Positions 7,777 to 59,124 of a DNA stretch of 64,000 bases are shown here, piece after piece (position 1 is the stretch's first letter; each line of letters opens with the position of its first letter). The position numbers and the translations under genes are program-made. Location: positions 1,888 to 65,887 of the forward strand of contig JAZDIN010000024.1 of the NCBI GenBank assembly GCA_043804895.1, in the 5' to 3' direction. Origin of the DNA: Candidatus Altiarchaeota archaeon (GTDB lineage: Archaea; Altiarchaeota; Altiarchaeia; IMC4; SCGC-AAA252-I15). The notes beneath the pieces are model-generated. The model made no database searches. It was not told where the DNA came from and saw nothing but the letters and a program-made list of their open reading frames with translations.

Positions 7777-7778
7777 GA

Positions 7779-8175: not shown

Positions 8176-8222
8176 TGTTTTAGGAGCGTCTTTTAGGCGT
8201 CGTCTCCAATATTTCTGAGCTT

Positions 8223-16978: not shown

Positions 16979-17092
16979 GTTATTCACCTATGTAAGTTAT
17001 AGCTTACTTGCGTATAAATACGCGCTTACTCCGCCCCTCACAGGGGTACTACTACCGTTTAATGTACTGTTTTTTAAGGTCGTATCGGCCGG

Positions 17093-19150
17093 ATGTTAAC
17101 CGGGATGGTTGGGTCGTTAGTGTCTCTGGCGTTAGTCTCGCTGATGCTGCCTGGCGGATACAACATAAACCTTGAGGTCTCAAACAGCACGTTCATGAAG
17201 CTCGCCTTGTATGATGACACGGCCGAGGCCTGGAATCAGCGGACTGTGGATGCATTCAACGCCAACAGGACGTACACGGTTGAGAGGGGCACGTGCTCGA
17301 ACACGACTGCGGATAATCCGGCAGAATCCTACGGGGGCCGTATCGGCGGGACAGGGAACCTGAGGTTGGATGGGGTGAATGTATCGTCTGAAATATTCAC
17401 AGACGGTTGTGGGGTAATCTACGCCGCTGAGCCTACATACTATGAAGGTAGCCGGAACCGGACGTGGGTTGAGGAGGGTGTGCTGTCCCTCTACGTAGGC
17501 CAAGGCTGCACCAGCCGGGAAGTCAACGGCACATGGGACAATCTCGAGATGGGAGTGCCCGGGACTGGGAGGCATAAGGAATATCTCCTGCCGGTGGTGG
17601 AGGAGACTGTAGTGCTGGCCGACGGAGGAGTCTGCTATAATGAGACGGTGGTGCACGGTTCCGGAGGATTTCCAGAATCGGTCGATACAGTGAAGGTCAT
17701 TCAGGTCAACTGCTCAGTCAACGGCTCGGACACTATCATCAGACTCGAACACACCTGCCGCGGATACGTCCTATTGGACAGCGCATACCTTGTAATGGGT
17801 TGGGTGAAGCGGTGCGACAGAGAGAGGTATATGAAGAACTGTCTTGAGGGTTGCAGCGCAGCGAACGCGGCAGGCTCCAAAAGCACTGGAGGGGGAGGCG
17901 GCACTGGAGGCTCATGCGACGGGGGATGCTGCAGGTCAGTGTGCACAAACCAGGCGAACCACAAGTGCAGGGAGGATGAGAGCGAGAATGCCGTGTGCCC
18001 TGATGTGCCGTCCGGGCAATACGGCAGCCCATATGATGGTTCGAGCGAGTACTTCATCGGTAAGCCTGGGGACAGTCACCCTGACCCCTGCTACTGCCAC
18101 CACCTTTTGGATGCTTCCAACATTTGCATGAACAACCGCGTCAGCCTCGCAGCATCCCAGGGTTACGAGTGCACTGATGTGAGGGAGTACACGATTGAGA
18201 TTAAGCCGAGGCTCACATGCAACGGGAGCTACTTTAAGTCAGGAGATTTTGGCCAAGGTTACCTTAGCCTAGAAGTCGAGCCTGACGTTGCGACAGCCTT
18301 CATCGTCGGCGACATACCCTACCGTTTCCAGACGTTCGCACCAAGGCACATACTCTATGGGACTGTTGAGGCTGTAAAATATTACAGTCTCGCAGACGGA
18401 GACTACAGGATTAACGAGTCGCATGAGGACAGCGGCTACTTCGACTTCGCATACTATGAGACAGTAGAGAACAAGTATCCTCCGAGGGTTGGAGAAGGGA
18501 TAGTATTGGATGAGGTCTCAGGAGGAAACGGGAGTTACAGGACGGGGTTCGCAGTCTCCGATGCTGGGAGAATAGGGAACCTGACTCTGACTGTGCTTAC
18601 GGTCGGGGACAGGATAGGTGGGGGGAGGGAATGCGACTTCGGGAACCCGTGCCCTGAGGGGATCTTCTGCATGGACGGAAGATGCCTTAACTTGGGTGAA
18701 GTAGAAAACCAGACTGTGAGATTCAGCGAATGCCTCACAGAGGCTAAGCAGGTGAACATCACGTTGAGTGTTCCTGATATTGTCGGCGAACGCTCGAGTG
18801 CGACTGCACTTGTGACGTTGAGTGCTGGTGGGCCGCTACCGGGCCGGACTGTGTCGTTCGGCTGCTGGGGCTGGCGGCAGAATGCGACGACCGATGGTGG
18901 CGGCAGAGCGTCTTTCACGTTCACTAGTGGGGTCGGCGCCAGCCTTTGCACCGCATCATATGGTGGGGATTATCAGTACAGTCCGGCGACGGCGGAAAAA
19001 TGGGTTCACACCGCCGCAAGAGGACCGGACTTTCGCATCTGGCTGATGTTCATTGCGCTCCTCCTTGTTATCGCCATCATATTCACTGCAGCATCGGGAG
19101 GGCGCACAATCTACGACGTGTATGAGACGCTGCGGGGGTTCATGAGATGA
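17093..19150 (+). CDS. Large Cys-rich, sequon-rich surface protein with a C-terminal membrane anchor
   Basis: N-terminal hydrophobic segment, at least a dozen N-x-S/T sequons by eye, a Gly/Cys cluster GGGGGTGGSCDGGCC, and a C-terminal TM IWLMFIALLLVIAIIFTAA. Confidence 0.6.
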   Translation: MLTGMVGSLVSLALVSLMLPGGYNINLEVSNSTFMKLALYDDTAEAWNQRTVDAFNANRTYTVERGTCSNTTADNPAESYGGRIGGTGNLRLDGVNVSSEIFTDGCGVIYAAEPTYYEGSRNRTWVEEGVLSLYVGQGCTSREVNGTWDNLEMGVPGTGRHKEYLLPVVEETVVLADGGVCYNETVVHGSGGFPESVDTVKVIQVNCSVNGSDTIIRLEHTCRGYVLLDSAYLVMGWVKRCDRERYMKNCLEGCSAANAAGSKSTGGGGGTGGSCDGGCCRSVCTNQANHKCREDESENAVCPDVPSGQYGSPYDGSSEYFIGKPGDSHPDPCYCHHLLDASNICMNNRVSLAASQGYECTDVREYTIEIKPRLTCNGSYFKSGDFGQGYLSLEVEPDVATAFIVGDIPYRFQTFAPRHILYGTVEAVKYYSLADGDYRINESHEDSGYFDFAYYETVENKYPPRVGEGIVLDEVSGGNGSYRTGFAVSDAGRIGNLTLTVLTVGDRIGGGRECDFGNPCPEGIFCMDGRCLNLGEVENQTVRFSECLTEAKQVNITLSVPDIVGERSSATALVTLSAGGPLPGRTVSFGCWGWRQNATTDGGGRASFTFTSGVGASLCTASYGGDYQYSPATAEKWVHTAARGPDFRIWLMFIALLLVIAIIFTAASGGRTIYDVYETLRGFMR

Positions 19151-20742
19151 TGAGGAAGATTTCGGTTATCCTGCTTTTGGCTTCGCCTGCTTCGGCCATC
19201 GGGGAGAACATGTTCCAGGGGGTCTACGATTTCATGACTAGCCTCATAACACTCAACCTCAAGGACACCCTGAGGATGATCGCTCAGAACATGGCGGCGA
19301 AGCCTGACCTTGCGAAATGGCCTATCATGTCCGGCATGCACGACAGCTTCACATGGCTTTCAGGTTTCTTCATGCTTGCGATGACGTTCCATGGGGTCAA
19401 GTACATTATGTCGGCTGACAGCCCCGGGGGGAGGGCGAACTCTAAGGCTGCGGTCGAGAAGCTGATTGTTGGGATGGTTATCGTCTCCTTCAACGGGCTC
19501 ATATTCAGTTTAGGCCTTGACTTCTCCTCAGCGTTGACCGACGCCTTCGTGGGCGGCGTGAACGCTAACGAGAACGCGCTAGCGAAGGTAGTGATGTTGA
19601 GCACGATATCACTGGCGTGCATCATCACGCCAGTCGGCTTATTGGCCGCGCTCCTCCTGCTGTTCATGTTCCTCGCCAGGTACCTCATCCTGATACTGCT
19701 TTGGGCGTTCTTCCCGCTGATTTTCGCCTTCTATTTCAGCCAGCTGGGCTTCCTGGCGAGGATTGGGGCGAGGGGCGTGAACCTGTTCATATCAGCGATA
19801 CTCGCTGGGCCTGTGATGGGTTTCATTTTCAAGGTAAGCTATGAGCTCCTCTTGGCTGCGGCTGAGGGGGTAACGTCGGGGCAGCAGCTCGCGGTCAACG
19901 GGTTCGAACCGTTCGTAGCCCTATTCGCAGCCCTTGCAGGATTCCTCCTTGCAGGATTCAGTCCGCTCGTAACGCTCGGGCTCGTGGATAGGATGGGGGC
20001 GATTGCTCAGGTCGCAGGCACTGTGCTTGGGGCGGCAGGCGGTGGGGCATTGGGTGCTGCAGTAGGGGGAGCGGCAGGGAAAGTGGTCACATCAGCCTCA
20101 GGGGAAGCCAAAGACGCTGCAGGGGATGTCGTAGGGCAGGGGGTCGGAGGGAACATGAAAGGGGATATATTGGACGCTGGTAAGGCTGCTGAAGACGGTT
20201 TGAAGAGGAGCGCTGTGAAGGTCGCGGCAACGCAGGACTACGACGCTAGCACGACAGAGGGTAAGCTGAAGTTTATGAAGGCCGTGCTACAGGAGTATGA
20301 TTGGCTGAATGAGGAGGGGGTGATAAGAGAGGACAACAGGAGTAGGATTAACGTCGGAGACGGAGGGAAGTACATCGCCAAAGGCACGAACCTCCTCAGC
20401 GGCCACTTCGAGTATGAGGTCCCCCATGGGCGTGGATTCGGCGACAGCCTGAGCAGGGAGGCAGCTGAAAAGCAGGGCCTGATTTCTGATGGGAAGATTC
20501 TGATGAAAAACGCGGTCCGAGGAAGCTACGGCGGGTACACCGTAACGGTGAACGACGGGGGCAGCAACCTTTATAATGTCGCAGTCCAGGGGGAGGAGAA
20601 GACGACGGTGATGACTGTGGAGAAAACCGTAGGACTTGGCAGTGGAGAGGAGGTGATACGGAGGATAATAGAAGAATCGCAGGAGAATGATGAAACGCCG
20701 GATAAGGTACTCAGCAGGATAAGGTATAGGGGTAGAGATTAG
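19147..20742 (+). CDS. Polytopic membrane protein, VirB6/TrbL-like architecture (tentative)
   Basis: Start overlaps the upstream stop (ATGA). Signal-like N-terminus, at least six hydrophobic spans, a Gly/Ala tract GAAGGGALGAAVGGAAG, and a hydrophilic C-terminal domain of about 180 aa. The call rests on architecture only. Confidence 0.35.
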   Translation: MMRKISVILLLASPASAIGENMFQGVYDFMTSLITLNLKDTLRMIAQNMAAKPDLAKWPIMSGMHDSFTWLSGFFMLAMTFHGVKYIMSADSPGGRANSKAAVEKLIVGMVIVSFNGLIFSLGLDFSSALTDAFVGGVNANENALAKVVMLSTISLACIITPVGLLAALLLLFMFLARYLILILLWAFFPLIFAFYFSQLGFLARIGARGVNLFISAILAGPVMGFIFKVSYELLLAAAEGVTSGQQLAVNGFEPFVALFAALAGFLLAGFSPLVTLGLVDRMGAIAQVAGTVLGAAGGGALGAAVGGAAGKVVTSASGEAKDAAGDVVGQGVGGNMKGDILDAGKAAEDGLKRSAVKVAATQDYDASTTEGKLKFMKAVLQEYDWLNEEGVIREDNRSRINVGDGGKYIAKGTNLLSGHFEYEVPHGRGFGDSLSREAAEKQGLISDGKILMKNAVRGSYGGYTVTVNDGGSNLYNVAVQGEEKTTVMTVEKTVGLGSGEEVIRRIIEESQENDETPDKVLSRIRYRGRD

Positions 20743-20754
20743 CTGTGGGAGGAT

Positions 20755-21264
20755 TCATCTGCCTCCGCGTTTCTTCATCTGTATCCCGAGGTCCAGAAGC
20801 TGCTTCTGGTAGTTTGAGACTATCATCTTGAAGCTCTTCTCCTCAAGTTCGCCGGCGTAGTAGCGCTCCTCTGCCTTCCTTATGAGCTCCTGGGTTTTCT
20901 TCCTCTGGGCCTCCAGCTCGTCCAAGCGCGGCTCCTGTTTAGGGGGAGTCTTCTCCTCGTCCTCCCTTTTTTGGATAACATTCTCCCTCTCCTTAAGCTC
21001 CTTCACCCGCTCAGCCTTAAGCCTCGCTTCACGTTCCCCCAGTTCCTTCTCGGTGCGGGCGAGCCTCTGCGGCTCGGATTCCTGTCTGGGGGGAGGCTTA
21101 GCAACTTCCACCTCATTCTTTTCCTGCGGCTCCGTTATCGGCTCCTCAGCCAAGACCTCCTCAGCCGCCCTTTTTTTGAGTATTTCCCTTATTATCAGGG
21201 CTACTAGGGCGGCTATTGCCAATAGTCCGGCAACGATTAGGGCATCCAATACGCTGTCATCCAT
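20755..21264 (-). CDS. Membrane-anchored coiled-coil protein
   Basis: ATG 21264 (MDDSVLDALIVAGLLAIAALVALII) followed by E/K/R/P-rich coiled coil. The listed GTG 21273 adds 3 aa. Confidence 0.55.
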   Translation of the reverse strand: MDDSVLDALIVAGLLAIAALVALIIREILKKRAAEEVLAEEPITEPQEKNEVEVAKPPPRQESEPQRLARTEKELGEREARLKAERVKELKERENVIQKREDEEKTPPKQEPRLDELEAQRKKTQELIRKAEERYYAGELEEKSFKMIVSNYQKQLLDLGIQMKKRGGR

Positions 21265-21366
21265 TACAAACACGCGAAGGTCTCCTGCCTCACGTTTGCA
21301 CCTCTTGTGTTTGTTTTGCTTGTCTGCATTTTGAGCGTGTCACAGCGGAGGCTTTGCCTCCGGTGT
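21264..21366 (-). repeat. Shared upstream leader module, copy A (partner at 29285..29392)
   Basis: Read on the minus strand: ACAC, a 6-bp hairpin, GCTCAAAATGC, AAGCAAAA, GAGGT, then CGCGTRTTTGTA-ATG. The same order and spacing occur in copy B. Confidence 0.6.
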
Positions 21367-21494
21367 GTGTCCGAGACATCAGTCTCGGCCACATTGTGAG
21401 TAATACCGCACCCAGGGTGCGGTATTTGATATTGTTTTCCCTTGGACTCAGGGCATATATCATTTATATCCAGTATAATATATGTTACCTGAAA

Positions 21495-23063
21495 ATGCGG
21501 CCTTATTTTGCTGTTTGGGTGGTTTTGCTGCTTGCAGGTTATGCTATAGCAGAGGACTCATGCAAAGTCGAGGTGTTGGATGATGCTAAGGGGATGCACG
21601 CCGTCGTAGAAGCCTGCGACAACATAGGAACATACTCGCTTGGGGGCCTTTACGACGGGCAGTGGACTAAGCTGACTTTCCAGTACCCTGAGCCGTGGGC
21701 TGGTACGTTCACGACGTTCGACATAGACGGCGAATATTTTTGCACCTCGAAGGACGGCAGAAACTGCACCATCATGGACGGGTATGTTTCTGAGAAGCCT
21801 AAGGCTGACGGGGCCGAAGTTGCTACCTCTTGGAATCTCCCGAGGGTCAGCGTAACGCAATCACTAAACATCATAGAAAACAGGACATTGATAAGATACT
21901 CAGTCCACAACACCGACGCGGAAAGCCATAAGGTCGGCATACGCCTCCACTTGGACACGATGTTGGGCGTGAACGATGGGGCGCCGATTTACGTGCCAGG
22001 CGACGGGCTGAAGACTGAGGAGGTTGAGTACAGCGGAGCCGGGCTCAACTTCGGCTACTGGAAGGTGTATAACACCCCTGACAACCCGACCATCGTCGCC
22101 ACCGGGACGATAGATCCGAACGATGGGATGACGTATCCTACGAGGGTCGTCGTGGCAGACTGGAAGAGGAGCAAGGACACTGCATGGGATTACAATGTTG
22201 AAGGTAGGCCCATCACCGGGGACAGCGCAGTCATACTGTACTTCGACCTCGGCGTCATCGACGCCGGTGGTGAGGCGGCTTTCGAGACAGGCATCGGGAG
22301 CGATGCTCCTGTGTTGAGTGAGGAGCAGGGCACCCTGGGTTTGACCGAGATTGTGCTTAGCAACATATCCGGGGTATATTGCCCTGGGGATGACGTAACA
22401 TTAAAGGTTGATGTGCTTAGCGCTGGAGTGCCAAGGAGTGGCTCAGTAGCCTTGAACGTCGAGAAGGACGGGAAGGTCTACTACAGCAATACCCAGAACG
22501 CAGCCCTGCCCAAGGACACGATAGTCAGCCTAGTGTACAATTGGAAAATCCAAGACGACAAGGAGGGAGGCTACACCGTGAAGGCATGGTTGTACAACGA
22601 CACTGGAGTTGTCGACTATAAGGAGAAACCAAACGCCGTCATTGTGAGTGAGACGCAGTGCGTGAACCGAGTGCTGGAAGTGGGCGGAGGGATAGTGGGG
22701 GGTTTCCTGTTCATAGCAGTCATCGTCTCGATAGGCCTTGCCATGGCCGCCGGATTCTACCTGTGGTTCAACCGAGGCAGCGTCGAGTTCACGAAATACG
22801 TTGACGGCGAATACGTCAAAGTCACAGTCCTCAACAACACTCAGAAGACGATACACGATATCGTCATAGAGGATACAATACCACCGGAAGTTGAGCTGAA
22901 GGTGCGGACGTTGAACGTCATCAGAAGACAGAACATGCTGGAATGGAGCATTGGTAAGTTGAGGCCGAAGGAGAGCGCGACCCTCGACTATTACGTTAAG
23001 GGAGGCCGTGCTGTGAGCAGCTCTTCAGTCAGGTGGGATAGGGGGGGCAAGAGCCTGGCATGA
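21495..23063 (+). CDS. Secreted or membrane protein with a DUF11-like conserved-repeat domain after the C-terminal TM
   Basis: ATG 21495 (MRPYFAVWVVLLLAGYAIA). TM segment GGFLFIAVIVSIGLAMAAGFYLWF. The tail VTVLNNTQKTIHDIVIEDTIPPEV ... LEWSIGKLRPKESATLDYYV matches the DUF11-type pattern. The listed start 21216 is over-extended. Confidence 0.55.
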   Translation: MRPYFAVWVVLLLAGYAIAEDSCKVEVLDDAKGMHAVVEACDNIGTYSLGGLYDGQWTKLTFQYPEPWAGTFTTFDIDGEYFCTSKDGRNCTIMDGYVSEKPKADGAEVATSWNLPRVSVTQSLNIIENRTLIRYSVHNTDAESHKVGIRLHLDTMLGVNDGAPIYVPGDGLKTEEVEYSGAGLNFGYWKVYNTPDNPTIVATGTIDPNDGMTYPTRVVVADWKRSKDTAWDYNVEGRPITGDSAVILYFDLGVIDAGGEAAFETGIGSDAPVLSEEQGTLGLTEIVLSNISGVYCPGDDVTLKVDVLSAGVPRSGSVALNVEKDGKVYYSNTQNAALPKDTIVSLVYNWKIQDDKEGGYTVKAWLYNDTGVVDYKEKPNAVIVSETQCVNRVLEVGGGIVGGFLFIAVIVSIGLAMAAGFYLWFNRGSVEFTKYVDGEYVKVTVLNNTQKTIHDIVIEDTIPPEVELKVRTLNVIRRQNMLEWSIGKLRPKESATLDYYVKGGRAVSSSSVRWDRGGKSLA

Positions 23064-24679
23064 CAGACGTTGAGGAGCTTGTCGAGAGGGTGGTGAAGGA
23101 AAGCGGGAGAAGCAAAGGGGAGATTAAGGCTAAGATGCATGAGCGGAAGGAGAAGACCCACGGCCTCCTCTCAGACTATGGGGCCATATACGCTGTCGCG
23201 AAGGAGTGCGGGATAGACTTGAGCGAATCCGAGACTGTTGTCATACCATTGTCGAAGGTGAAGCCATCAAATTCGGTGAACATCATAGGCAGGGTTAAGA
23301 CCGTCTACTCTGAGAGGGAGTTCGCCAGGAAGGACGGCAGCAGGGGGAAGTTTGCTTCTATCGTGGTCGCAGACGCAACCGGCGAGACGAGGATAGTTCT
23401 CTGGGACAATAACACGGCAATAGTCGGCAAACTGAGAGTCGGAGACGTGGTGAGCGTAAGGAACGGGTACGCCAAAGACAACAGAGGACAGCTTGAGGTG
23501 CACGCCGGCCCGCTGACGAACATCACAATCAACCCTACAAACGTGAAAGTCGCCCTGCCGGAAGTCGAGGAGAGGATAGACAGTATCAAAGGGCTTGAAG
23601 CATGCCAGCCGTCTGTGAACATCGTATGCAGGGTCACAAACTACTACCCCAAGGCTGAATTCAACCGCCCAGACGGGACTAAAGGCTCGAGGGCCTCCTT
23701 TGTTGGCGAGGATGAGAGCGGCTCAGTGAGGGTCGTCTTGTGGAATCCGCTTTCTGAGTTGGAGCTTTTAGAAGGGGATATAGTCAAGTTGGAGAACGCC
23801 TACACAAGGGAGGGTTTGAACGGCGAGGTGGAGTTGCACGCTGGGGGTAGAAGCAGGATTGTTAAAACTGACGCTAAACTTAAGCTGAAGCCGCTTGCTA
23901 AGAGGGTTGACACAGTCAAGGTGAAGGAGATCAAGCCTGACATGAGTGGATTCAACCTTGAATGTAGGGTATTGAGAGTCTATGAGCCTCGTGAATACTC
24001 CAAGGGTGTGATGGCGTCCATCATAGTCGGCGACGCAACAGGCACCATAAGGGCTGTGCTCTGGAACGAGAGGTCTGACGCCGCAAAAAAGCTTAAGGAA
24101 GGCGACCCTGTGAGGATAAGAAACGCCTACAGCAAAGCCAACATGAACGGCGAAGTGGAGGCGCACCTCGGAAAGTACTCAGACGTTGTGGTCGACGCTA
24201 AGATAAAGGTCCCGACACAGGCGGAGATAAACGAGACGCTCGCTAAAGAGAAGAGGATAGTGGACCTCGACGTCAGCGACAGTTTCGTGAGAATCAAAGG
24301 TAAGATAATGGGTATAGAGGACAGGCAGCTCGTATACATGACCTGTCCGGAATGCAACAAGAAAGTCCAAAGCCTTGGGGGGGAATGGATGTGCGACTCG
24401 TGTGGAGTCATAGAGGGTACGCCGAACATGATGGTCTCGGTTGTCGTGGAAGACGACACCGGCAACATCAGGGCAATCGCATTCAAGGACAAGGCCGAGA
24501 GGATACTTGGCATGGACCTTGAGGAGGCGATGAACATCATAGGAGAAACCCAGGACGAGAAGGCTCCGATAGCACAGGCCCGGGAGCGGATAACAGGTAA
24601 CATGATAACCCTCCTCGGGAAAGCCAACTACAACGAATACAGCGACCAGCTGGAGTTCATGGTGAACGAGATAGTGTGA
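23060..24679 (+). CDS. rpa: Replication protein A (single-stranded DNA-binding protein, four OB folds plus zinc ribbon)
   Basis: Three tandem OB repeats (RIVLWDN, RVVLWNP, RAVLWNE contexts) and a fourth OB fold carrying CPECNKKV ... CDSCG. ATG overlaps the upstream stop (ATGA). Confidence 0.85.
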   Translation: MTDVEELVERVVKESGRSKGEIKAKMHERKEKTHGLLSDYGAIYAVAKECGIDLSESETVVIPLSKVKPSNSVNIIGRVKTVYSEREFARKDGSRGKFASIVVADATGETRIVLWDNNTAIVGKLRVGDVVSVRNGYAKDNRGQLEVHAGPLTNITINPTNVKVALPEVEERIDSIKGLEACQPSVNIVCRVTNYYPKAEFNRPDGTKGSRASFVGEDESGSVRVVLWNPLSELELLEGDIVKLENAYTREGLNGEVELHAGGRSRIVKTDAKLKLKPLAKRVDTVKVKEIKPDMSGFNLECRVLRVYEPREYSKGVMASIIVGDATGTIRAVLWNERSDAAKKLKEGDPVRIRNAYSKANMNGEVEAHLGKYSDVVVDAKIKVPTQAEINETLAKEKRIVDLDVSDSFVRIKGKIMGIEDRQLVYMTCPECNKKVQSLGGEWMCDSCGVIEGTPNMMVSVVVEDDTGNIRAIAFKDKAERILGMDLEEAMNIIGETQDEKAPIAQARERITGNMITLLGKANYNEYSDQLEFMVNEIV

Positions 24680-25293
24680 ACGTGGATTACCCTGCCCTCC
24701 TTTTGGCTGCCATAACGCTCCTTGCGACAAGATACGTATACCTGGACCACGTCAGCTACGCCATCCTATGCCTGAGCCTGATGGTCGCCCTACCGTTAGC
24801 ATACATCAGATGGCGTAAACGCGCCCCAGGCGCCTACCTGATACAAGCCGGGATGTGGAGGAATGGGCTCATAATCTCAGCTGCCATGATTCTCGCTGCT
24901 TTGCCGATAATGCACTACGGCTCAACGCTCCAGCAATTCCAGAAGTACTACCCAACCTGGGGGCCGGCGTCCGAGAACCTGCATAACTTCATAATGTTCG
25001 AGCTTTACGTCCTAGCCATAATGGTGTCGACTGAGGTCTTCTACAGGGGATTCCTCATGAACGTCCTCAGGGAGCACACAAGGCACGGCAACGCAATACA
25101 CGCAATCATTTACATGCTGGCTCACATAGGAAAGCCGCCGCTTGAAGTCGCCTACTCGCTCCCTGTCGGATGGATCTTCGGAGAAGTCGACATCAAATGC
25201 AAGAGCATACTCCCCAGCCTGACGATGCACTACATATCAAGCGTGATATTCGACATGATGATACTATACCAGTTGGGGGTGAGAGTCGTCTGA
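24676..25293 (+). CDS. CPBP-family intramembrane protease (CAAX/Abi-like)
   Basis: Polytopic protein with TEVFYRGFLMN, HAIIYMLAH and MHYISSVIFD, which are CPBP-like motifs 1 to 3. GTG start overlaps the RPA stop. Confidence 0.55.
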   Translation: MNVDYPALLLAAITLLATRYVYLDHVSYAILCLSLMVALPLAYIRWRKRAPGAYLIQAGMWRNGLIISAAMILAALPIMHYGSTLQQFQKYYPTWGPASENLHNFIMFELYVLAIMVSTEVFYRGFLMNVLREHTRHGNAIHAIIYMLAHIGKPPLEVAYSLPVGWIFGEVDIKCKSILPSLTMHYISSVIFDMMILYQLGVRVV

Positions 25294-36151: not shown

Positions 36152-37483
36152 ATGATACACCCAATCGAAGGCAGGTACGGCCGCAAGGAGGTTAAGGCCA
36201 TCTTCGAGGAGGAGAACAAGCTCCAGAGGATGCTGGATGTTGAGGCTGCCCTCGCGAGGGCTCATGCTAGGGTAGGGGACATCCCGAAGAAGGACGGTAA
36301 CGTCATAACGCTGAAGGCGAACGTCAAGCATGTGAAGTTGGAGGCTGTTAAGGAGATTGAGGCTGAGATAAATCATGACGTCATGGCTGTTGTTAAGGCG
36401 TTGAGTAAAGAGTGCGGGTATTCAGGCAAGTACGTTCATCTTGGGGCGACAAGCAACGACATCACGGACACTGCGTTGGCTTTGCAGCTTAAGGATTACA
36501 TCAAGTATCTTGGAGAGGGTTTGGCTGAGTTGAGGGATGAGCTTGCCAGGAAGGCGAGGGAGCACATCAAGACCGTCTGCATCGGCAGGACCCACGCCCA
36601 ACATGCTGTCCCGACCACGTACGGACTCAAGTTCGCGATATACGCCATGGAGGTGGACAGGCACATCCAGAGGCTGGATGAGGTGAAGGGGAGGATTCTC
36701 GTTGGGAAGATGAGCGGAGCTGTTGGGACGCAGGCTGCGCTTGGTAGGAATGCTATCGCGATACAGGAGCATGTGATGGAGCAGTTGGGTCTCGGGTGCG
36801 TTGAGGTCTCAAATCAGGTGGTGCAGCGTGACAGGCACGCTGAGTTCATGATGCTATTAGCCCTCATAGCCGAGACCTTGAACAAGTTAGCGACTGAGGT
36901 GAGGAACCTCCAGAGGACTGAGATAGACGAGGTCAGGGAGGGGTTCGGTAAGAAGCAGGTCGGCTCCTCGACGATGCCGCATAAGATGAATCCGATACAC
37001 GCTGAGAGGATTTGTGGGGTGTCTAGGGTCATCAAGGCGGATGCTATGGCGTCGCTGGAGAACATCGCACTATGGCATGAGAGGGACCTCACGAACTCAA
37101 GCTGCGAGCGCATTATAATACCCGAATCATGCATACTCACAGATTACATTCTGCGTTTGAGCATCGACCTTGTCAGGAATCTTGTCTTCAACATGGAGAA
37201 CATCAGAAGGAACCTTGACATGACCCAGGGGAGAATCATGGCAGAGTCTGTGATGATGAGGATGGTTGGGAAGGGTTACGGCAGGCAGGAGGCCCATGAG
37301 GTCGTGAGGGAGTGCGCTCTCGAAAGCTACAGAAAGGGGAGGCCGTTGAAGGACATGCTGATGGGCAACGCTACTGTGAGGAAGCATCTGAGTGAGGCTG
37401 AGATTGACGATGCACTCAACCCCGGGAAGTACATAGGTACTGCGGAGGAGCAGGTCAGAGCAGCCCTCAAAAAGTTTTCCTGA
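36152..37483 (+). CDS. purB: Adenylosuccinate lyase
   Basis: MIHPIEGRYG at the start and the fumarate-lyase signature GSSTMPHKMNP. Confidence 0.9.
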   Translation: MIHPIEGRYGRKEVKAIFEEENKLQRMLDVEAALARAHARVGDIPKKDGNVITLKANVKHVKLEAVKEIEAEINHDVMAVVKALSKECGYSGKYVHLGATSNDITDTALALQLKDYIKYLGEGLAELRDELARKAREHIKTVCIGRTHAQHAVPTTYGLKFAIYAMEVDRHIQRLDEVKGRILVGKMSGAVGTQAALGRNAIAIQEHVMEQLGLGCVEVSNQVVQRDRHAEFMMLLALIAETLNKLATEVRNLQRTEIDEVREGFGKKQVGSSTMPHKMNPIHAERICGVSRVIKADAMASLENIALWHERDLTNSSCERIIIPESCILTDYILRLSIDLVRNLVFNMENIRRNLDMTQGRIMAESVMMRMVGKGYGRQEAHEVVRECALESYRKGRPLKDMLMGNATVRKHLSEAEIDDALNPGKYIGTAEEQVRAALKKFS

Positions 37484-38384
37484 TTAGGTCGTCTATCAGG
37501 TGGTCTGCGCTGAATCCGAAGTTCTTGCTGTCCTGGTTCATCACAAGCCTGTGCCTGAGTATCGGGTGGGCTAGTTCGACAACGTCTTGTGTGGTTGCCT
37601 GCCGCCCCCCCATGAGGAATGCCCTGGTTTTCACAGCCTTTGTGTAAAGTACTGTCGCCCTCGTGCTAGCCCCTGCCACGACCTCTTTCCTAGCCCTTGA
37701 CGCTGCTGCTAATGCGATTATGGAGTCTATGACCCCGTCGGGAACGTCGATTTCGGACTTTATGCGCTCCTGTATGGCGAGCACTTCAGCTGGTGTAAAT
37801 AGTTTGCTCACCTTAACTGAGCTGACGCTCGACTTTATCGCCTCCCTCTCATCGTCAGGGGTGAGGTAGGTCATGTGCGATTTCAGTAGGAACCGGTCCT
37901 GCTGCGCTTCGGGCAGTGGGTAGGTGCCCTCACACTCTATCGGGTTCTGGGTCGCGATGACGAAGAAGGGCTCTGGGAGGATGTGAGTCTGCCCGGCAAC
38001 TGTCACGCTCCTTTCTGACATCGCCTCAAGGAACGCTGACTGCGTCTTAGGTTGGGCGCGGTTTATCTCATCGACGAGTAGCACGTTGGTGAACAGCGGA
38101 CCAGCCCCGAAGAACCTGCCTCCCAACTCCTCGTCAGAGTACATGTCGCCTATGATGTCACGGGGAGCTAGGTCTGGGGTGCATTGTATCCGCTTGAATG
38201 CCATATCCATTATCTCAGCTATCGTCCTTGCCATCAGGGTCTTCCCGAGGCCTGGGGGGCTTTCGATGAGTATGTGCCCTGATGAGAGGATGCATATGAG
38301 TATGTCTTCTATGACGTCTTTGTTTCCGATTACCCTCCTTCCTATCTCCCTGCGCATGAGGTCTATCCTCTCGTGTTCCTTCAT
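37467..38384 (-). CDS. MoxR-family AAA+ ATPase
   Basis: ATG 38384 (MKEHERIDLMRREI) shares ATGA with the upstream stop. ESPPGLGKT, LLVDEINRAQPKTQSAFLEAM. The listed start 38582 is over-extended. Confidence 0.85.
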   Translation of the reverse strand: MKEHERIDLMRREIGRRVIGNKDVIEDILICILSSGHILIESPPGLGKTLMARTIAEIMDMAFKRIQCTPDLAPRDIIGDMYSDEELGGRFFGAGPLFTNVLLVDEINRAQPKTQSAFLEAMSERSVTVAGQTHILPEPFFVIATQNPIECEGTYPLPEAQQDRFLLKSHMTYLTPDDEREAIKSSVSSVKVSKLFTPAEVLAIQERIKSEIDVPDGVIDSIIALAAASRARKEVVAGASTRATVLYTKAVKTRAFLMGGRQATTQDVVELAHPILRHRLVMNQDSKNFGFSADHLIDDLIRKTF

Positions 38385-39091
38385 AGTATCACCTTCCTTG
38401 CCGTGACCCTCCATTCTGCGGAGTTCATGCAGGGTATCCCGTATTGTTTGCACGTGCGGCGTATGTTCTCCGAGTCGGAGAGGACTACGCTTGGAGTCTC
38501 CCTTGCGATTGCCACGCTCGCGTAGGGTGTGTCGTCGTTGTTGGCTTCCGCTTTGACGAACACCTGCGTCTTTGCGCCGCACACCTCCACCTCGCCCAAT
38601 CCCTTCAAATCCAACGCTGAGCGAGCCTCAGGCCATATCTCACGAGGGACGCACACGAAACCGAACACCGTATGTAGCGCCTTAACGTCCTCGCAGGTCA
38701 CGGCCTCGATGAAGTCCATCTCAGCTACCGCACTGCACGCTCCGAGCGCGATGCTATCATACTCCACATTCTTAGGTTCGGCCTTCCATTCCACTCTACA
38801 CACTGAAGATGCACGGCTCCCAGGATTTTTTGGTGCTGTCCTCCTTTGATCGTTTCCTGTCGATTTTGATTTTTCGACCAACTGGTTTTTGATTGCCTGA
38901 GTCTCGTCGAGGTCGTTTGGTTGGTCGGCAGGCTGGCTTAGCACGAGCTGGGATATTTTAAAGCGGCAGGTTAGGTTCAGGCTGAGGGAGGCAACCGCCA
39001 ATATGGCGAAGGATAGGATGAGTGTCCTCTCATCATGTCCGAGCATTCCCAAGTATCCTGCGAACTTCCCTACTAAGTCAGTCATCCCCAA
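38381..39091 (-). CDS. Membrane-anchored protein with a possible PIN-like C-terminal domain
   Basis: TM segment LILSFAILAVASLSLNL. The C-terminal domain has VEYDSIALG near its start and VVLSDSENIRRTCKQYGIPC near its end, which is a weak PIN-like pattern. Confidence 0.35.
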   Translation of the reverse strand: MGMTDLVGKFAGYLGMLGHDERTLILSFAILAVASLSLNLTCRFKISQLVLSQPADQPNDLDETQAIKNQLVEKSKSTGNDQRRTAPKNPGSRASSVCRVEWKAEPKNVEYDSIALGACSAVAEMDFIEAVTCEDVKALHTVFGFVCVPREIWPEARSALDLKGLGEVEVCGAKTQVFVKAEANNDDTPYASVAIARETPSVVLSDSENIRRTCKQYGIPCMNSAEWRVTARKVIL

Positions 39092-42000
39092 CCCTTGCCG
39101 GAAAAAGACTCCTCAGCGCGGACTTGACTTCATAAGCCATGATGACGTTGCCGTATCCGCCTGCAACGAGAGCATCCCTTACGCCCTCAGTCAAGGCGAT
39201 GAGTATGAGCGAGGTGTTCCCAATGGCAGCTTCGATTTTCCTTTGTAGCCCGTCCAATTCCTTCATCGTCAGGACCTCCACAGCTATCATCCTCCCGTTT
39301 GGTAGCTTTGCTGTGACGTCAGGCATCACCCGCTCATGCATCCTGACTGTCATCTCATCGTCAGTTAGGCCGAGCCTGAATCTCACGCTCTCAAGGTACT
39401 TGAATATGAGGAACTTGCGCAGGAAGTGGATGGTATCCTCTGAGTCTGGCTTTTTGACGTAGTATACTTTCCTGTCATCCCGGCTTAATCCGATGTCCGC
39501 AACCTCCACGTACCCCTCACTCTTAAGCCTTTTCAGGTCCGCCTCCTTCAGGACTTCTCGCGGGAGGACCGGATCTCTGCTGGCGTCGAACATTAGGTTC
39601 GTTGTGGTCTGCGGTCGCGTCATCTCAAAAGTAATCCTCTCTTCCGGGCTGGTGGAGAGCATCCGCTTCTCGTACTCGCTTGCTAGGACGAATAGGGGAA
39701 TCTTCACTGACGGCGTGAGCATGAGGACGTCGCCTGTGCCGGCGTTCTGGAGGAACATCCTCTGGTTCTCGGTCAAGGCGAAGCTATCGGCTATCATCCT
39801 CAACCCAACAGCCTCCTGCCTGAGGAGGAATTTCGTAGATGTGTTGTTCAGTATCACATGGCCGCGCGGCATCCCTGTTGCGTCCTTTGACAGTAGGTCT
39901 TCGACGTTCTGGTCTATTATGACGACGCTCAGGTTCTCTTTCCTGCCGGTCCGGACTATGGGCCCGAGGTAGTCCTGGTTGTTCTCGAACACGCTCCATG
40001 CCTCGTCCACGAGTATCATCTTCCGCTTCTCCCTCCTGTGTTTGGCTACCCATGAGCGGATGTAGTCGAAGACGATGAAGAGGGCCATGGACCGCTCCAA
40101 TGGCTTGAAGGCTGTGGTTGAGGATATGTCGAAGCAGACTATGTTCTTGCCCTTAAGGTCCACCGTGGTCTCTTGGTTGAGGTATCTGAGGTCGCCTGAG
40201 ACGAGGGGGGTGATGTAGCTTAGGAGGGCTTCAGCTGTGACCTTCTTCCATGACTCAGCCCTGGAATTCGAATCTGAGGCGAACTGGTTGAGAGCCTCAT
40301 AAACGCTTGTGAATGTCGGTGGCGTTTTACCCCAGGTGCTATCATCGTCCGGATATATCCCCGCCTTCCTGTATGCGTTGTCTATCATCCTGTCCACTAT
40401 GCCTGATGCTGCACCTGACAGCCGCTCGTCCATGTTCCCCCTGAGTATGTTGAAGAACGCCTTAACGCTACCCTTGCGGCCATCGTAGGTGTCGTTGCCG
40501 AGGTCGAATATGTTGATTGTCGACTTTGAGTCGTGACTGAGCCGTATCACCTGTCCGCCCATCTTCTCAACCAGCTTCCCGTATTCCCCCTGGGGGTCTA
40601 TGACGAACATGTCGACGTCGTGCATGGCTTCGGAGAGGAAGAGCTTTTTCACGAGGAAGGACTTCCCGGAGCCTGAGCTTCCGAGCACCAGTATGTGGGG
40701 GTTAGGTTGCGTGAACACATCCAGTAGCACCGGTATGCCGTTGAGCTGGTTGTATCCTACGACGACTGCTCCGTCGCCTGCGTCCGCCAGGCAGCTGAGT
40801 ATGAACGGGTAGGAGTCCCTGACCGCGCTTGAGGGGAATAGCCTGTCGCGGCGCTCCCCCAGCTTGTCCTCAGCCAGCGGGTAGCAGCTTTTCAATGCGT
40901 CCTCCATCTCCCAGTTAGCGACCCTCACCTGCGCGTTCATCCCCTCCAACACGTCCTTGATTCGCATCACAGCCAAGTCGAGTTCCTTCTGCCCGTAGGC
41001 TTTGACGTTAACGTACAGCGCGACGTCGAAGCACTTCTCCTCGTCCCTTGATACACGGTTCAGAAGTTCCTTCACCTTCTGGAGGTTCACCCTGTCCTTC
41101 TCGGAGACTAGGAGGCATTCACGCTCCCTTGTCGTCACGTCAGTCTCGAGCTTCGTAATCTCATGCTGGAGGTAGTCGACGCTTGTCTTCTGGCTCAGGG
41201 GATGCATGTGGAAGACTATGTCAAAGTCTATGGGCTGCCTTATCAGCTTCGTCAGCCAACCGGGGTGGACGACAGCCGGGAACCGGACCGTGAACAGCAC
41301 CCTGTGGAGTTTCTCCACCTCAGCATGGCTCTTGTGGAAGTCGAGTGAGGGGGGCATAAGCTGCTCAACAACGAATGATTTGCGGTCTGATGTGTTGCGG
41401 ACGTAGTCAAGGCCGGCCTGCTCGAATCTCGCCTGCAGGCGCTCATCGTACATGGGGGCGAACGGATCCAATGAGTTTCCGAATCTCTTGAGCATCTCTT
41501 TCGCCTCTGACATCGCCTCCATGCCGTTGTGGAAGGTTAGTGGGCTGAACGCGCCTGAAGTGAGTTTGAACCTCGGGTTGTAGAAGTTGGCGTAGAACCT
41601 TATCAGGTCTTCTGTCTTAAGCCTCTCGCAGTCTATGCCTGAGTCCCTTAGGCTTGCCATCAGGTTTCTCGTCTTAGCATCAAGGTCCACCATCGCCTTC
41701 TTCAGCTGCCCACCCATGGGCTGGGTGATGATGATGTAGTAGTCGCGGTCAGTCACAGTCTTTGAGGTGACGACGCCGCGCAGGAAATCTGCGAAGTGTT
41801 CGAAGTAGCTCATGCGCTCGGTTTTTCCGCCAAGAAGCACCTTCTCCTTCAGCCTCTGCAGGTAGCCTTCGACGTCTATCTCCGTCGATGACATGATTAT
41901 CTGGATGTTGGTGCTGAGCTCATGGAGGAAGGTTCCGTATCCTGCAAGCACCTTCTCTATGTCAGATTCGCTGAGGCTTGCCAAGTCCTTCGGCATCACC

Positions 42001-42344
42001 TTCACAGCTGACAGGAGTCGGTGGTCGGAGGTGAACACGGTGTCGCAGTCGATGTCATCGACGCCGATGAATTCCCGCATCTTCTTCGTGTTCCACAGGA
42101 GGCGTTTCCTGCCGCTTGCGAACCGAAGCCACAGGTATGTTTTTTCGTCGATTCCGAAGAATGCTATGCCGGCGTAGGCGAATATGTACAGTAGGCCATA
42201 TGAGAGGACGATTATGGGCTGGTAGCCCCGGAATGCTAGTATGATGCCTGGCACTGCTAGTGCGAGCATTATGGCGCTTTGTGTGAACGTGAGGTTGCCT
42301 AGGAATTTCTCCTTGTATTGTGAGGTAGCAAATGTCTCGACCAT
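39078..42344 (-). CDS. VirB4/TrbE/TraC-like conjugation-type ATPase with an N-terminal double-TM (VirB3-like) prefix and an extra C-terminal nuclease-like tail
   Basis: VLGSSGSGKSFLVKKL (Walker A, about 40660..40690), KMILVDEAW (Walker B, about 39996..40020), GRKENLSVVIIDQNVEDL and NNTSTKFLLRQ. N-terminal helices AIMLALAVPGIILAF and IIVLSYGLLYIFAYAGIAFFGI. The C-terminal ~200 aa contain MPDVTAKLPNGRMIAVEV. Confidence 0.65.
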   Translation of the reverse strand: MVETFATSQYKEKFLGNLTFTQSAIMLALAVPGIILAFRGYQPIIVLSYGLLYIFAYAGIAFFGIDEKTYLWLRFASGRKRLLWNTKKMREFIGVDDIDCDTVFTSDHRLLSAVKVMPKDLASLSESDIEKVLAGYGTFLHELSTNIQIIMSSTEIDVEGYLQRLKEKVLLGGKTERMSYFEHFADFLRGVVTSKTVTDRDYYIIITQPMGGQLKKAMVDLDAKTRNLMASLRDSGIDCERLKTEDLIRFYANFYNPRFKLTSGAFSPLTFHNGMEAMSEAKEMLKRFGNSLDPFAPMYDERLQARFEQAGLDYVRNTSDRKSFVVEQLMPPSLDFHKSHAEVEKLHRVLFTVRFPAVVHPGWLTKLIRQPIDFDIVFHMHPLSQKTSVDYLQHEITKLETDVTTRERECLLVSEKDRVNLQKVKELLNRVSRDEEKCFDVALYVNVKAYGQKELDLAVMRIKDVLEGMNAQVRVANWEMEDALKSCYPLAEDKLGERRDRLFPSSAVRDSYPFILSCLADAGDGAVVVGYNQLNGIPVLLDVFTQPNPHILVLGSSGSGKSFLVKKLFLSEAMHDVDMFVIDPQGEYGKLVEKMGGQVIRLSHDSKSTINIFDLGNDTYDGRKGSVKAFFNILRGNMDERLSGAASGIVDRMIDNAYRKAGIYPDDDSTWGKTPPTFTSVYEALNQFASDSNSRAESWKKVTAEALLSYITPLVSGDLRYLNQETTVDLKGKNIVCFDISSTTAFKPLERSMALFIVFDYIRSWVAKHRREKRKMILVDEAWSVFENNQDYLGPIVRTGRKENLSVVIIDQNVEDLLSKDATGMPRGHVILNNTSTKFLLRQEAVGLRMIADSFALTENQRMFLQNAGTGDVLMLTPSVKIPLFVLASEYEKRMLSTSPEERITFEMTRPQTTTNLMFDASRDPVLPREVLKEADLKRLKSEGYVEVADIGLSRDDRKVYYVKKPDSEDTIHFLRKFLIFKYLESVRFRLGLTDDEMTVRMHERVMPDVTAKLPNGRMIAVEVLTMKELDGLQRKIEAAIGNTSLILIALTEGVRDALVAGGYGNVIMAYEVKSALRSLFPARVGDD

Positions 42345-42413
42345 CCAACCACCAGAGTATTCTGGTTGGTATCGGGTTAAAAGACAGTATATTAAAGGGT
42401 AGTAATACGGCAG

Positions 42414-42875
42414 TCACTTGGGTCTTTCGAGCTCTATCCCATGCTTCTCCTTCACGACGTTCAAAACCACCATCGTATACGTCCTCTCAACGTTCTCCAT
42501 CGCGTTGAGCTTCTTAACCAGCACGTTGAGGGCGTCACGGTCCTTGAACTTAGCGACCACAATGGCATCATACTCTCCTGTAACGTCATATACAGCAGTG
42601 ACATTCTCCTCTTTGGATATCTTCTCCTCGATGTCAGGCAGACGGCCACCGGACGCTATAACCCCTATGACTGCAGTCAGGTCGTAGCCGAGCTTGCTGT
42701 AGTCTATGTCTGTGATGAAATTCTTTATGACTCCAAGCTCCCTGAGCTTGCTCACCCTGTTGTACACGGTCCCCTCCGCGACCTTCAGCTTCTCAGCTAT
42801 CTCACGGAAGCTCCGCCTCCCATCGTACTGAAGCTCCTTCACAAGCAGCATATCCAGCTCGTCTATCTTAGCCAT
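42414..42875 (-). CDS. lrp: Lrp/AsnC-family transcriptional regulator
   Basis: DMLLVKELQYDGRRSFREIAEKLKVAEGTVYNRVSKL helix-turn-helix plus a C-terminal RAM/ASNC domain. Confidence 0.9.
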   Translation of the reverse strand: MAKIDELDMLLVKELQYDGRRSFREIAEKLKVAEGTVYNRVSKLRELGVIKNFITDIDYSKLGYDLTAVIGVIASGGRLPDIEEKISKEENVTAVYDVTGEYDAIVVAKFKDRDALNVLVKKLNAMENVERTYTMVVLNVVKEKHGIELERPK

Positions 42876-58982: not shown

Positions 58983-59124
58983 AAGCGATGAAACCGCCCT
59001 CCTCTGGGGGGGGCGGTAAATGTATGTATCTACTATTGCGGTTTCAAGCTTATCAAACCGGCGACTTTTGTCGCCGGTTACTGATAGATTGGATATTAAC
59101 CAGAGCAGCAAATTAATTGACGCC

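Follow-up and report, generated by a model that had tools for sequence, protein, structure and literature searches.

Introduction

In characterised type IV secretion systems (T4SSs), the ATPase VirB4 powers pilus biogenesis. Two archaeal systems related to these machines, Ced and Ted, are defined by homologues of VirB4, VirB6, and VirB2, and DNA import by them has been demonstrated (PMC9905601, PMC11868833). VirB4-like ATPases of DPANN archaea have been discussed for the SPEARE proteins of nanohaloarchaea (PMC10266531), and a survey of Patescibacteria has covered relaxase-less T4SSs of MPF-FATA descent (PMC12102498). Archaeal conjugation-like systems that have neither a relaxase nor the coupling protein VirD4 raise the question of how their DNA is recognised and processed. 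Here, we analyse a stretch of 64,000 nucleotides (nt) from a Candidatus Altiarchaeota archaeon (positions 1,888 to 65,887 of contig JAZDIN010000024.1, assembly GCA_043804895.1), hereafter the window, in which a first reading of the DNA without database searches (the original prediction) had singled out three coupled genes as a candidate undescribed T4SS-derived module. We read these genes, hereafter the trio, as a T4SS derivative in which the domain fusion and the accessory genes are both undescribed:

39078..42344, minus strand: gene 1, probable VirB3(PrgI)-VirB4 fusion ATPase with a C-terminal tail, 1088 amino acids (aa)
38381..39091, minus strand: gene 2, membrane-tethered PIN-like protein, 236 aa from a TTG start
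37467..38384, minus strand: gene 3, MoxR-class AAA+ ATPase, 305 aa

The original prediction recognised no described system in this combination, and our literature searches likewise found no description of the trio: full-text searches returned no paper joining Altiarchaeota with VirB4, and co-mentions of VirB4 and MoxR were incidental only.

Results

Gene 1 encodes a probable VirB3-VirB4 fusion ATPase

The domains of the gene 1 product were delimited as follows:

42075..42344, minus strand: VirB3/PrgI-like N-terminal segment (aa 1-90), the cytoplasmic peptide KEKFLGNLTFTQS and then a hairpin of two transmembrane helices
40785..42062, minus strand: VirB4 N-terminal domain (aa ~95-520), from the Mbov_0397 alignment over aa 68-896
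39654..40775, minus strand: VirB4 C-terminal P-loop ATPase domain (aa 524-897), from Pfam P-loop_TraG (1.6e-24) and PDB 4ag5
39081..39575, minus strand: tail (aa 924-1088, ~165 aa), from AlphaFold2 and Foldseek

The protein matched the NCBIfam VirB4 families CD1110 (8e-73) and Mbov_0397 (2.8e-72), the latter over aa 68-896 and profile positions 76-893 of 894, and gave further matches to the TraC (7.5e-32), VirB4_CagE (3.5e-30), and CedB (3.9e-19) profiles. Its sole relative among PDB sequences is 4ag5, a VirB4 C-terminal domain that aligns with aa 524-897 (6e-19). HerA models scored at most 14 bits and FtsK 10.5 bits. The profile searches thus assign gene 1 to the VirB4 family, as had been predicted, and not to HerA or FtsK, and the plain HerA/FtsK ATPase that would have overturned the prediction did not emerge. 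The VirB4 N-terminal domain gave a weak Pfam match to TraC_F_IV, and the TraC-like family PF26593 is on record for homologues. Ahead of this domain, hydropathy located the two predicted hydrophobic helices at aa 20-38 and 44-62. The match of this segment to PrgI is weak (Pfam E=4.5e-3, aa 8-69, 17.9 bits against a cutoff of 27); the peptide KEKFLGNLTFTQS is conserved, the segment contains residues that are invariant across our alignment A1, and a Diapherotrites protein (locus L017) annotated as PrgI plus a TraC-like N-terminal domain matches the N-terminal part of gene 1 (6e-22). The Walker A (GSSGSGKS, aa 555-562) and Walker B (ILVDEAW, aa 777-783) motifs are invariant or nearly so in A1. These and the other motifs on which the prediction had been built, RKENLSVVIIDQN (aa 801-813), NNTSTKFLLRQ (aa 833-843) and, in the tail, HFLRKFLIFKYLES (aa 973-986) and MPDVTAKLPNGRMIAVEV (aa 1007-1024), were all located in their expected places. 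Gene 1 is therefore a VirB4 with intact Walker motifs and probably a VirB3(PrgI)-VirB4 fusion, which is predicted to be anchored in the membrane via its N-terminal two-helix hairpin and to have its ATPase in the cytoplasm.

The tail of gene 1 is modelled with a PD-(D/E)xK fold

The tail consists of a small beta-alpha-beta-beta module (aa 924-968), possibly winged-helix-like, and a PD-(D/E)xK-fold domain (aa 971-1078). AlphaFold2 modelled it from a 7-sequence alignment with a pLDDT of 89 and a pTM of 0.86, and the core elements of the model follow the order alpha-beta-beta-beta-alpha-beta. When the model was compared with the PDB using Foldseek, EndoMS/NucS came first (6e-4, probability 0.97-0.98), and the next matches were AF2093, XisH, VRR-NUC, EcoO109I, EcoRV, LmuA, and Hjc, essentially all of which are PD-(D/E)xK proteins. 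TM-scores were low (~0.33) because a two-domain query was compared with two-domain targets. Searches by sequence were negative: the tail had no sequence-profile match, no match came from a word-index homology search with A2, the profile of the tail, and the same profile run against PDB sequences returned spurious summed polyubiquitin repeats only. On the predicted structure, the tail carries a PD-(D/E)xK core fold.

Five residues are conserved in the tail (E969, H973, D1009, E1023, and K1036), and the window copy keeps all of them. They correspond to an E, H, D, E, K set that is invariant or near-invariant across the wide family of tailed VirB4 proteins described below, in which the tail motif reads PD(I/V)...(A/V)(I/V)E(V/I)ETG and the helix after it carries an invariant Lys. 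Where the (D/E)xK motif has its canonical Lys, the window has Leu (L1025) and the wider tailed family has Glu.

Tailed VirB4 proteins occur in pilin-bearing clusters of other DPANN archaea

With the full-length gene 1 profile, an exhaustive HMMER search yielded 9621 proteins (E <= 1e-3), and in many of the distant representatives the alignment runs on through the whole tail. A hidden Markov model (HMM) of the tail detects the domain in ~35 of the top 150 representatives. Named tailed members include VVC03592.1 of Ca. Burarchaeum australiense (Micrarchaeota) and MFH1224191.1 of a Diapherotrites metagenome-assembled genome (MAG). The tail, noted in the original prediction as an extra C-terminal region, is indeed present but is not peculiar to it; judged from these alignments, it is a hallmark of a wide DPANN VirB4 clade. 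No description of tailed DPANN VirB4 clusters was found in the literature searched. Four of these clusters bear pilin genes:

L016 (Burarchaeum): integrase, methyltransferase, TrbC, T4SS_pilin, 545 aa, 317 aa, tailed VirB4, Orc/Cdc6-like, restriction-modification
L017 (Diapherotrites): pilin, 490 aa, 315 aa (TrbL_3 weak on record), PrgI plus VirB4 N-terminal domain, ATPase plus tail, type I restriction-modification
L019: pilin, 711 aa, histone-fold protein, 335 aa, tailed VirB4, ParA/VirC1-like protein, integrase
L021: integrase, pilin, 580 aa, 305 aa, tailed VirB4

The pilin assignments in L016 and L017 were confirmed with Pfam. An integrase lies near three of the four clusters and restriction-modification genes in two; no MoxR, VirD4, or relaxase is among the recorded Pfam hits of any of them. 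The Diapherotrites VirB4 is split over two genes. The closest non-tailed match (P0010) lies in a classical bacterial conjugative element with VirD4 and NlpC/P60 (outgroup L015). We conclude that the trio probably descended from a pilin-bearing DPANN T4SS.

Another group of proteins found in this search, P0021, P0107, P0115, and P0148 (1161-1426 aa), matches through the C-terminal 350-500 residues only, and P0021 is also tailed. These proteins may be giant surface-protein/VirB4 fusions like nanohaloarchaeal SPEARE.

The trio is a conserved neighbourhood in Altiarchaeota

The three open reading frames (ORFs), predicted as a tightly coupled set, are all intact and translationally coupled. Genes 2 and 3 share the ATGA of the prediction, with a GGTGAT Shine-Dalgarno sequence before it. 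The predicted 14-nt overlap of genes 1 and 2 holds if gene 2 starts at the TTG; an alternative start, the ATG at 39085 two codons in, gives a protein of 234 aa and an overlap of 8 nt (ATGACTGA). This ATG is the probable start of gene 2 and is the one used in the identical NCBI protein P0012, which is annotated 'Candidatus Altiarchaeota archaeon'. The 3' end of gene 3 is convergent with the next gene.

The order of the trio recurs in at least eight Altiarchaeota loci, in full in L001, L002, L006, L008, L009, and L010 and partly in L003 and L005. The adjacency, which the original prediction allowed might be confined to this genome, is thus kept across loci far beyond chance. These loci come from a word-index search that gave only nine close gene 1 homologues and from one metagenome scan that added a few more loci; the five GTDB loci are from three Altiarchaeota MAGs and two contigs of one MAG labelled 'uncultured archaeon' (CAYXON, GCA_964467145.1). 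This last MAG carries two paralogous VirB4/PIN-like copies, L003 and L002/L007, with 60% and 51% identity to the window. L002 is a complete trio in a context that differs from that of the other loci, since it adjoins KaiC-like and T2SSF (archaeal type IV pilus/archaellum) genes, and in its middle protein (441 aa) the PIN-like domain is enlarged by an insertion of ~60 aa. Two small ORFs upstream of the L002 VirB4 gene were considered as pilins and rejected, as they encode acidic soluble peptides. The L003 contig stops just after the middle gene, so that MoxR would lie beyond view. L005 (1317-4306) encodes a tail-less VirB4 (879 aa, P0008), a middle ORF shortened to 117 aa, and an intact MoxR, which reflects either an artefact of assembly or frameshift or a natural event in which both the tail and the PIN domain were lost.

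Identity to the window is 51-70% for VirB4, 49-69% for MoxR, and 24-41% for the middle protein. Comparison of the closely related loci L001 and L009 gave dN/dS values of 0.17 for VirB4, 0.37 for the middle protein, and 0.23 for MoxR (dS 0.40-0.67), and all three genes are under purifying selection. The common upstream order is UDP-glucose dehydrogenase, Lrp-AsnC, a variable insert of 0-3.5 kb, and VirB4. This synteny of UDP-glucose dehydrogenase and Lrp, together with further housekeeping synteny, was observed in seven loci (tblastn comparison) and in L020, and indicates that the trio was inherited vertically at a fixed chromosomal site. In L006, a duplicated piece of the VirB4 N-terminus (6985-7206; aa 1-72, 54% identity) lies right after Lrp, and a CBS-PAS histidine kinase gene (7746-9698, minus strand) stands between this piece and the full-length VirB4 gene; the arrangement looks like the scar of an insertion event.

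An alignment of upstream regions revealed one further conserved feature:

42375..42410, minus strand: promoter-like block 5' of gene 1

In the window, a TATA-like TTTAATATA lies at 42388-42396, 52 nt 5' of the gene 1 ATG, and this element is found ~50-60 nt 5' of the ATG in five loci. The block GTATTACTACC..TTTAATATAC..CTTTTAACC is common to the window, L001, L006, L009, and L012 irrespective of the upstream gene, which argues for a dedicated promoter, and we regard the block as the putative promoter of the trio.

The likely ribosome-binding region of gene 1 overlaps with an imperfect inverted repeat, CCAACCAG..CTGGTGGTTGG (42345-42372, minus strand), which lies directly 5' of the ATG. The next gene upstream, in the same direction, encodes an Lrp/AsnC-family regulator (42414-42875, minus strand); this label, already given to the flank in the original prediction, is backed by Pfam hits on record for syntenic contigs. 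An Lrp/AsnC gene is also found upstream of the ATPase gene in L001, L003, L005, L006, L009, L012, and L013 (tblastn comparison), in L020, and in the P0003 contig, with spacers ranging from ~70 nt to 3.5 kb. The regulator may control the operon, or the arrangement may simply be syntenic.

Gene 2 is a membrane-tethered PIN-like protein and gene 3 a MoxR ATPase

The soluble part of gene 2 contains one modelled domain:

38384-38740, minus strand: PIN-fold domain of gene 2 (aa ~118-236), from AlphaFold2 and Foldseek

Hydropathy gave a single transmembrane helix (aa 24-42, nt 38969-39022), next to which lies a low-complexity linker. The AlphaFold2 model, built from a shallow alignment of 3 sequences, has a pLDDT of 80 and a pTM of 0.76. 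Its top Foldseek match is the PIN protein AF0591 (1.6e-3, probability 1.00, TM-score 0.51/0.57, root mean square deviation 3.6 A), followed by SSO1118, Utp24, Nob1, HARP RNase P, and VapC, and on this model the domain has the PIN alpha/beta/alpha fold. A sequence search of gene 2 against the PDB returned nothing useful. We also considered that gene 2 might be a VirB8-like (NTF2-fold) bitopic protein, and rejected this because the model is alpha/beta/alpha and its top Foldseek matches are PIN domains. In the eight copies compared, E124, which follows strand 1, is always Glu or Asp (Asp in two homologues), and D206, within an (S/T)D(S/A)xN motif, is present in 8/8; N209 and C214 are conserved too. 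The positive flank C-terminal of the transmembrane helix puts the PIN-like domain in the cytoplasm, and the gene 2 homologue of the contig L018, in which a signal peptide, a large ectodomain, and a transmembrane helix come before the PIN-like domain, agrees with this placement. The predicted membrane-anchored, PIN-like nature of gene 2 was thus borne out by the modelled fold and the topology, and the protein is a single-pass membrane protein with a PIN-fold domain predicted to be cytoplasmic. Gene 3 is a standard MoxR AAA+ ATPase, as expected from the original prediction, with Pfam matches to AAA_3 (2.7e-56) and AAA_lid_2 (7.6e-12), Walker A PPGLGKT (aa 43-49), and Walker B LLVDEINR (aa 102-109). 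The usual MoxR partners, vWA and DUF58 proteins, were found neither among the scanned proteins of the window and related loci nor among the recorded Pfam hits of neighbours.

A second locus of the window encodes probable partners of the trio

No T4SS part adjoins the trio; in distant members of the clade, pilins and membrane proteins adjoin VirB4. Two genes ~17 kb away in the window are probable partners:

17093..19150, plus strand: 685-aa surface protein, probable partner, full-length homologue of L018_660 (7e-48)
19147..20742, plus strand: 531-aa polytopic membrane protein, probable partner, homologous to genes directly upstream of tailed VirB4

The 685-aa protein has an N-terminal signal/transmembrane segment, a Cys-rich ectodomain with an Ig-like domain (Pfam Big_3_5, weak), and a C-terminal transmembrane anchor. 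The 531-aa protein has a signal peptide, a VirB2/pilin-like hairpin (aa ~44-119), ~5 transmembrane helices, a Gly-rich stretch, and a C-terminal soluble domain. The contig L018 encodes, in contiguous order, proteins of 660 aa and 813 aa, a tailed VirB4, and a PIN-like protein of 468 aa. The first of these matches the 685-aa protein over its full length, the 813-aa protein matches the polytopic core (aa 42-280) of the 531-aa protein (8e-26), and the 468-aa protein matches the PIN-like domain of gene 2 (5e-6) and gave a very weak PIN_5 match itself. In Burarchaeum L016, too, the gene that immediately precedes VirB4 is a match to the 531-aa protein (7e-8). Four proteins that occupy this 'VirB6 slot' have a signal peptide and the invariant motifs ARY and FP...YF in common. 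When a HMM of five DPANN VirB2-like pilins was run against 2766 ORFs of the window, the Altiarchaeota loci, and L018, the sole match was the 531-aa protein (4.8e-5, mainly aa ~44-119); weak support in the 531-aa family comes from Pfam T4SS_pilin (2.7e-3) and the NCBIfam Mbov_0395 pilin-like family. These matches suggest that the 531-aa protein probably joins a pilin-like hairpin to a polytopic channel domain. The link between this pair and the trio is drawn from the gene order in one contig (L018) and the weaker Burarchaeum match, which together make the pair candidate components of the same apparatus.

Several other genes surround the pair. Upstream lie a VapC-type PIN toxin ORF (14730-15146, plus strand; MRYYVDTNV...VTRDKHF) and a RelE/ParE-like ORF paired with an AbrB/SpoVT-like antitoxin ORF (16470-16718 and 16712-16987, both minus strand), all called by eye. 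A secreted 292-aa protein (15476-16354, minus strand) has long Thr-rich repeats and a C-terminal Cys-rich domain with CYGHDRCY, and matches prokaryotic phospholipase A2 of Pfam weakly and below cutoff (9e-4). Just downstream of the pair, a 615-aa DUF11 surface protein (21216-23063, plus strand) overlaps the RPA gene by 4 nt, and an Rce1-like CAAX protease (24676-25293, plus strand) is encoded after RPA.

The window is ordinary chromosome

The window contains thermosome, P-type ATPase, RPA, DNA ligase, HerA, and sugar-nucleotide genes. The original prediction had reported no relaxase, coupling protein, or integrase near the trio, and none of the three was found among the window ORFs scanned, nor was any other hallmark of a mobile element; a VirB8-like protein and a cell-wall hydrolase were likewise not found in the window. 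The combination of integrase, relaxase, and VirD4 in one locus that defines an integrative conjugative element was thus not found there, and the flanks are syntenic housekeeping genes. A viral origin of the trio was also considered, and was dropped after a scan of viral contigs gave no relatives. Further along the window, a bona fide HerA-type ATPase (56972-58591, plus strand; DUF87, 2.7e-34) adjoins an ATP-dependent DNA ligase (59020-60786), so the genome has a HerA that is distinct from the VirB4-like gene 1.

Discussion

Weighing these results, we read the trio as a chromosomally fixed ('domesticated') relaxase-less T4SS derivative, MPF-FATA-like and specific to one Altiarchaeota clade, that probably handles DNA, a reading in which we place confidence and doubt in equal parts. 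According to it, the VirB4 oligomer would dock beneath a channel that the 531-aa protein forms, the 685-aa protein would be exposed at the cell surface, and the motor would drive nucleic acid, most likely DNA, across the membrane in parallel to Ced and Ted. The nuclease-fold tail would bind or process DNA at the cytoplasmic face, replacing the absent relaxase and coupling protein, while the tethered PIN-like domain may be an accessory subunit for nucleic-acid handling or docking and MoxR may act as an assembly or remodelling chaperone.

A number of observations weigh against this reading. DNA is put forward as the substrate from the domain folds only, and both folds have incomplete catalytic motifs. 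In all Altiarchaeota copies examined, the canonical Lys of the (D/E)xK motif is replaced by Leu, Phe, Ala, or Val, and the window tail has in addition lost the second Glu and the TG of the EVETG motif of the wide family; with these residues lost, the tail may not cleave anything. Of the nuclease-like tail of the original prediction, the fold stands and the catalytic Lys does not, although K1036 of the following helix could complete a variant site with E969 and H973. The tail may even be dispensable, given L005. Gene 2 has no domain match in Pfam, NCBIfam, or PADLOC and no PIN sequence profile, and only two of the PIN acidic positions are strictly conserved: the second varies and the third is usually Ser (Ala in two copies). 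All equivalog matches of gene 1 fall below the curated cutoffs (246 vs 325; 244 vs 590), which makes it a divergent VirB4, and its placement within VirB4 comes from profile bit scores and not from a phylogeny. The 531-aa protein, which had been proposed as possibly VirB6/TrbL-like, is linked to the T4SS by homology and position, but it matches no VirB6/TrbL profile of Pfam or NCBIfam, and neither it nor the VirB6-slot profile gave a useful match to PDB sequences. No stand-alone pilin gene was found, and the 531-aa and 685-aa genes are absent from the ~8-10 kb flanks of the other Altiarchaeota loci, which is all that was scanned there.

Alternatively, the trio may belong to a T4SS-derived apparatus for protein secretion, a surface structure, or cell-cell contact, in which VirB4 assembles a pilus or adhesive structure, as it powers pilus biogenesis in characterised systems. 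The Ig-like 685-aa protein and the 531-aa protein would then be external parts, MoxR an assembly chaperone, and the nuclease and PIN folds non-catalytic docking modules, as their incomplete motifs would allow. The candidate partners are indeed surface and membrane proteins, and in L002 and L006 the surroundings of the trio include archaeal type IV pilus genes. MoxR has been tied to predicted archaeal surface or secretion complexes (PMC5898192), and a VirB4-type ATPase domain is found in the giant adhesin-like SPEARE, for which effector secretion has been proposed (PMC10266531). However, the E/H/D/E/K set of the tail is kept across a very wide family, which speaks for the retention of an active site, or of a site for a ligand, such as nucleic-acid enzymes typically have, and the mobile relatives lie beside integrases and restriction-modification genes, as expected for DNA-transfer elements. 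Moreover, no stand-alone effector candidates, like no pilins, adjoin the trio. We consider a surface apparatus unlikely, if still worth serious attention.

A role in anti-phage or anti-plasmid defence, in which an anchored motor of the FtsK/HerA superfamily would sense or capture incoming DNA for destruction by the tail and the PIN-like domain under regulation by MoxR, is improbable. Combinations of ATPases and nucleases are typical of defence systems, toxin-antitoxin genes are present elsewhere in the window, and gene 2 is fast-evolving compared with VirB4, both in identity and in dN/dS. PADLOC gave a partial P-loop match to mad8 (1e-25) and weak matches to HerA and DndH, but no PADLOC model covers the proteins as a system. 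Unlike the contents of a patchy variable island, the trio occupies a fixed chromosomal site, and its housekeeping neighbours are conserved in many diverged genomes; the ATPase is a full-length VirB4 with a VirB3-like prefix whose nearest relatives lie inside pilin-bearing T4SS clusters. That the trio is a non-functional, decaying vestige of an integrated conjugative element and lies beside an unrelated MoxR gene by chance, as the lack of most canonical T4SS parts nearby, the eroded tail motif relative to the mobile relatives, the shortened L005 version, and the duplicated 5' VirB4 fragment of L006 might suggest, is scarcely credible in view of the intact ORFs, the Walker motifs that are invariant across loci at 51-70% identity, the conserved gene order, start/stop overlaps, and upstream block, and the purifying selection on all three genes.

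The reading as a domesticated, DNA-handling T4SS derivative can be taken further, and here we are more tentative. The DPANN T4SS clade could do without a relaxase and a coupling protein because its VirB4 itself carries, in the tail with the E/H/D/E/K site, the module that recognises and processes DNA, and the Altiarchaeota version could be a third, independent domestication beside Ced and Ted, one that added the PIN-like protein and MoxR and serves the exchange or uptake of chromosomal DNA. For relaxase-less DNA processing, the fusion of a nuclease-fold domain to VirB4 that many DPANN lineages conserve is a concrete, testable candidate, and the tethered PIN-like protein and the MoxR ATPase are accessory subunits unreported with a T4SS in the literature searched. 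The operon may also point to a route of DNA exchange or cell-cell interaction in poorly known uncultured DPANN archaea. Should the nuclease-like folds turn out to be inert, the locus would remain an example of a T4SS motor remade out of modules that already existed.

Comparison with known systems

HerA-NurA and other pairs of an FtsK/HerA motor and a nuclease resemble the trio in that a hexameric pumping ATPase of the same superfamily is joined by nuclease-fold partners. They differ in the ATPase, which in the trio is a membrane-anchored VirB4 with HerA scores of at most 14 bits, and the window encodes its HerA separately. The putative arCOG01314 MoxR/GvpN secretion system of archaea (Makarova et al. 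2015, PMC5898192) likewise places MoxR beside a single-pass alpha/beta membrane protein and includes Ig-like surface proteins. It has a DUF4350/GldG-like anchor and vWA proteins, neither of which was found in the window, and it has no VirB4; in addition, its anchor has a signal peptide and a C-terminal transmembrane helix, the opposite of the N-terminal helix of gene 2. We considered genes 2 and 3 as such a system and rejected the assignment because of the different anchor protein and topology and of the vWA proteins that it requires.

The MPF-FATA T4SSs (PrgI/PrgJ of pCF10; CD1110 and Mbov_0397 VirB4) supply the best profile matches, in both the N-terminal and the ATPase domains of gene 1, in which a putative VirB3/PrgI-like segment of two transmembrane helices lies ahead of VirB4. 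Distant relatives of the trio keep VirB2-like pilins and a polytopic membrane protein directly upstream. By contrast, VirD4, relaxase, a VirB8-like protein, cell-wall hydrolase, and integrase were not found in the window, whereas the bacterial L015 has VirD4 and an NlpC/P60 protein, and the trio combines the probable VirB3-VirB4 fusion with an extra tail, a fixed chromosomal site, and the coupled PIN-like and MoxR genes. The tailed DPANN clusters have in common with the window the VirB4 clade, the E/H/D/E/K tail, and a homologous membrane protein, which in the clusters is encoded upstream of VirB4; unlike the trio, they have stand-alone TrbC/T4SS_pilin genes, mostly an integrase, the full EVETG motif, and no MoxR.

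Compared with Ced (Sulfolobales) and Ted (Thermoproteales), gene 1 is remote in sequence, with scores of 68.7 bits for CedB against a cutoff of 700 and 49.2 for CedD against 600, so that orthology to Ced is not indicated. A fused nuclease-fold tail, a PIN-like protein, and MoxR are all missing from Ced and Ted, which belong to another lineage than the Altiarchaeota/DPANN trio; the trio is known from genes alone, and its candidate channel gene lies ~17 kb away with a VirB6 identity that is only putative. Nevertheless, all three are chromosomal, relaxase-less archaeal T4SS derivatives built around a VirB4-like ATPase. The polytopic membrane protein and VirB2-like element that accompany Ced and Ted have putative counterparts in the candidate partners of the trio, and Ted loci often contain the DNA-processing enzymes Rad50 and HerA, a further point of resemblance. 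The Altiarchaeota operon would thus be, besides Ced and Ted, another machine of mobile elements that became fixed in a host chromosome.

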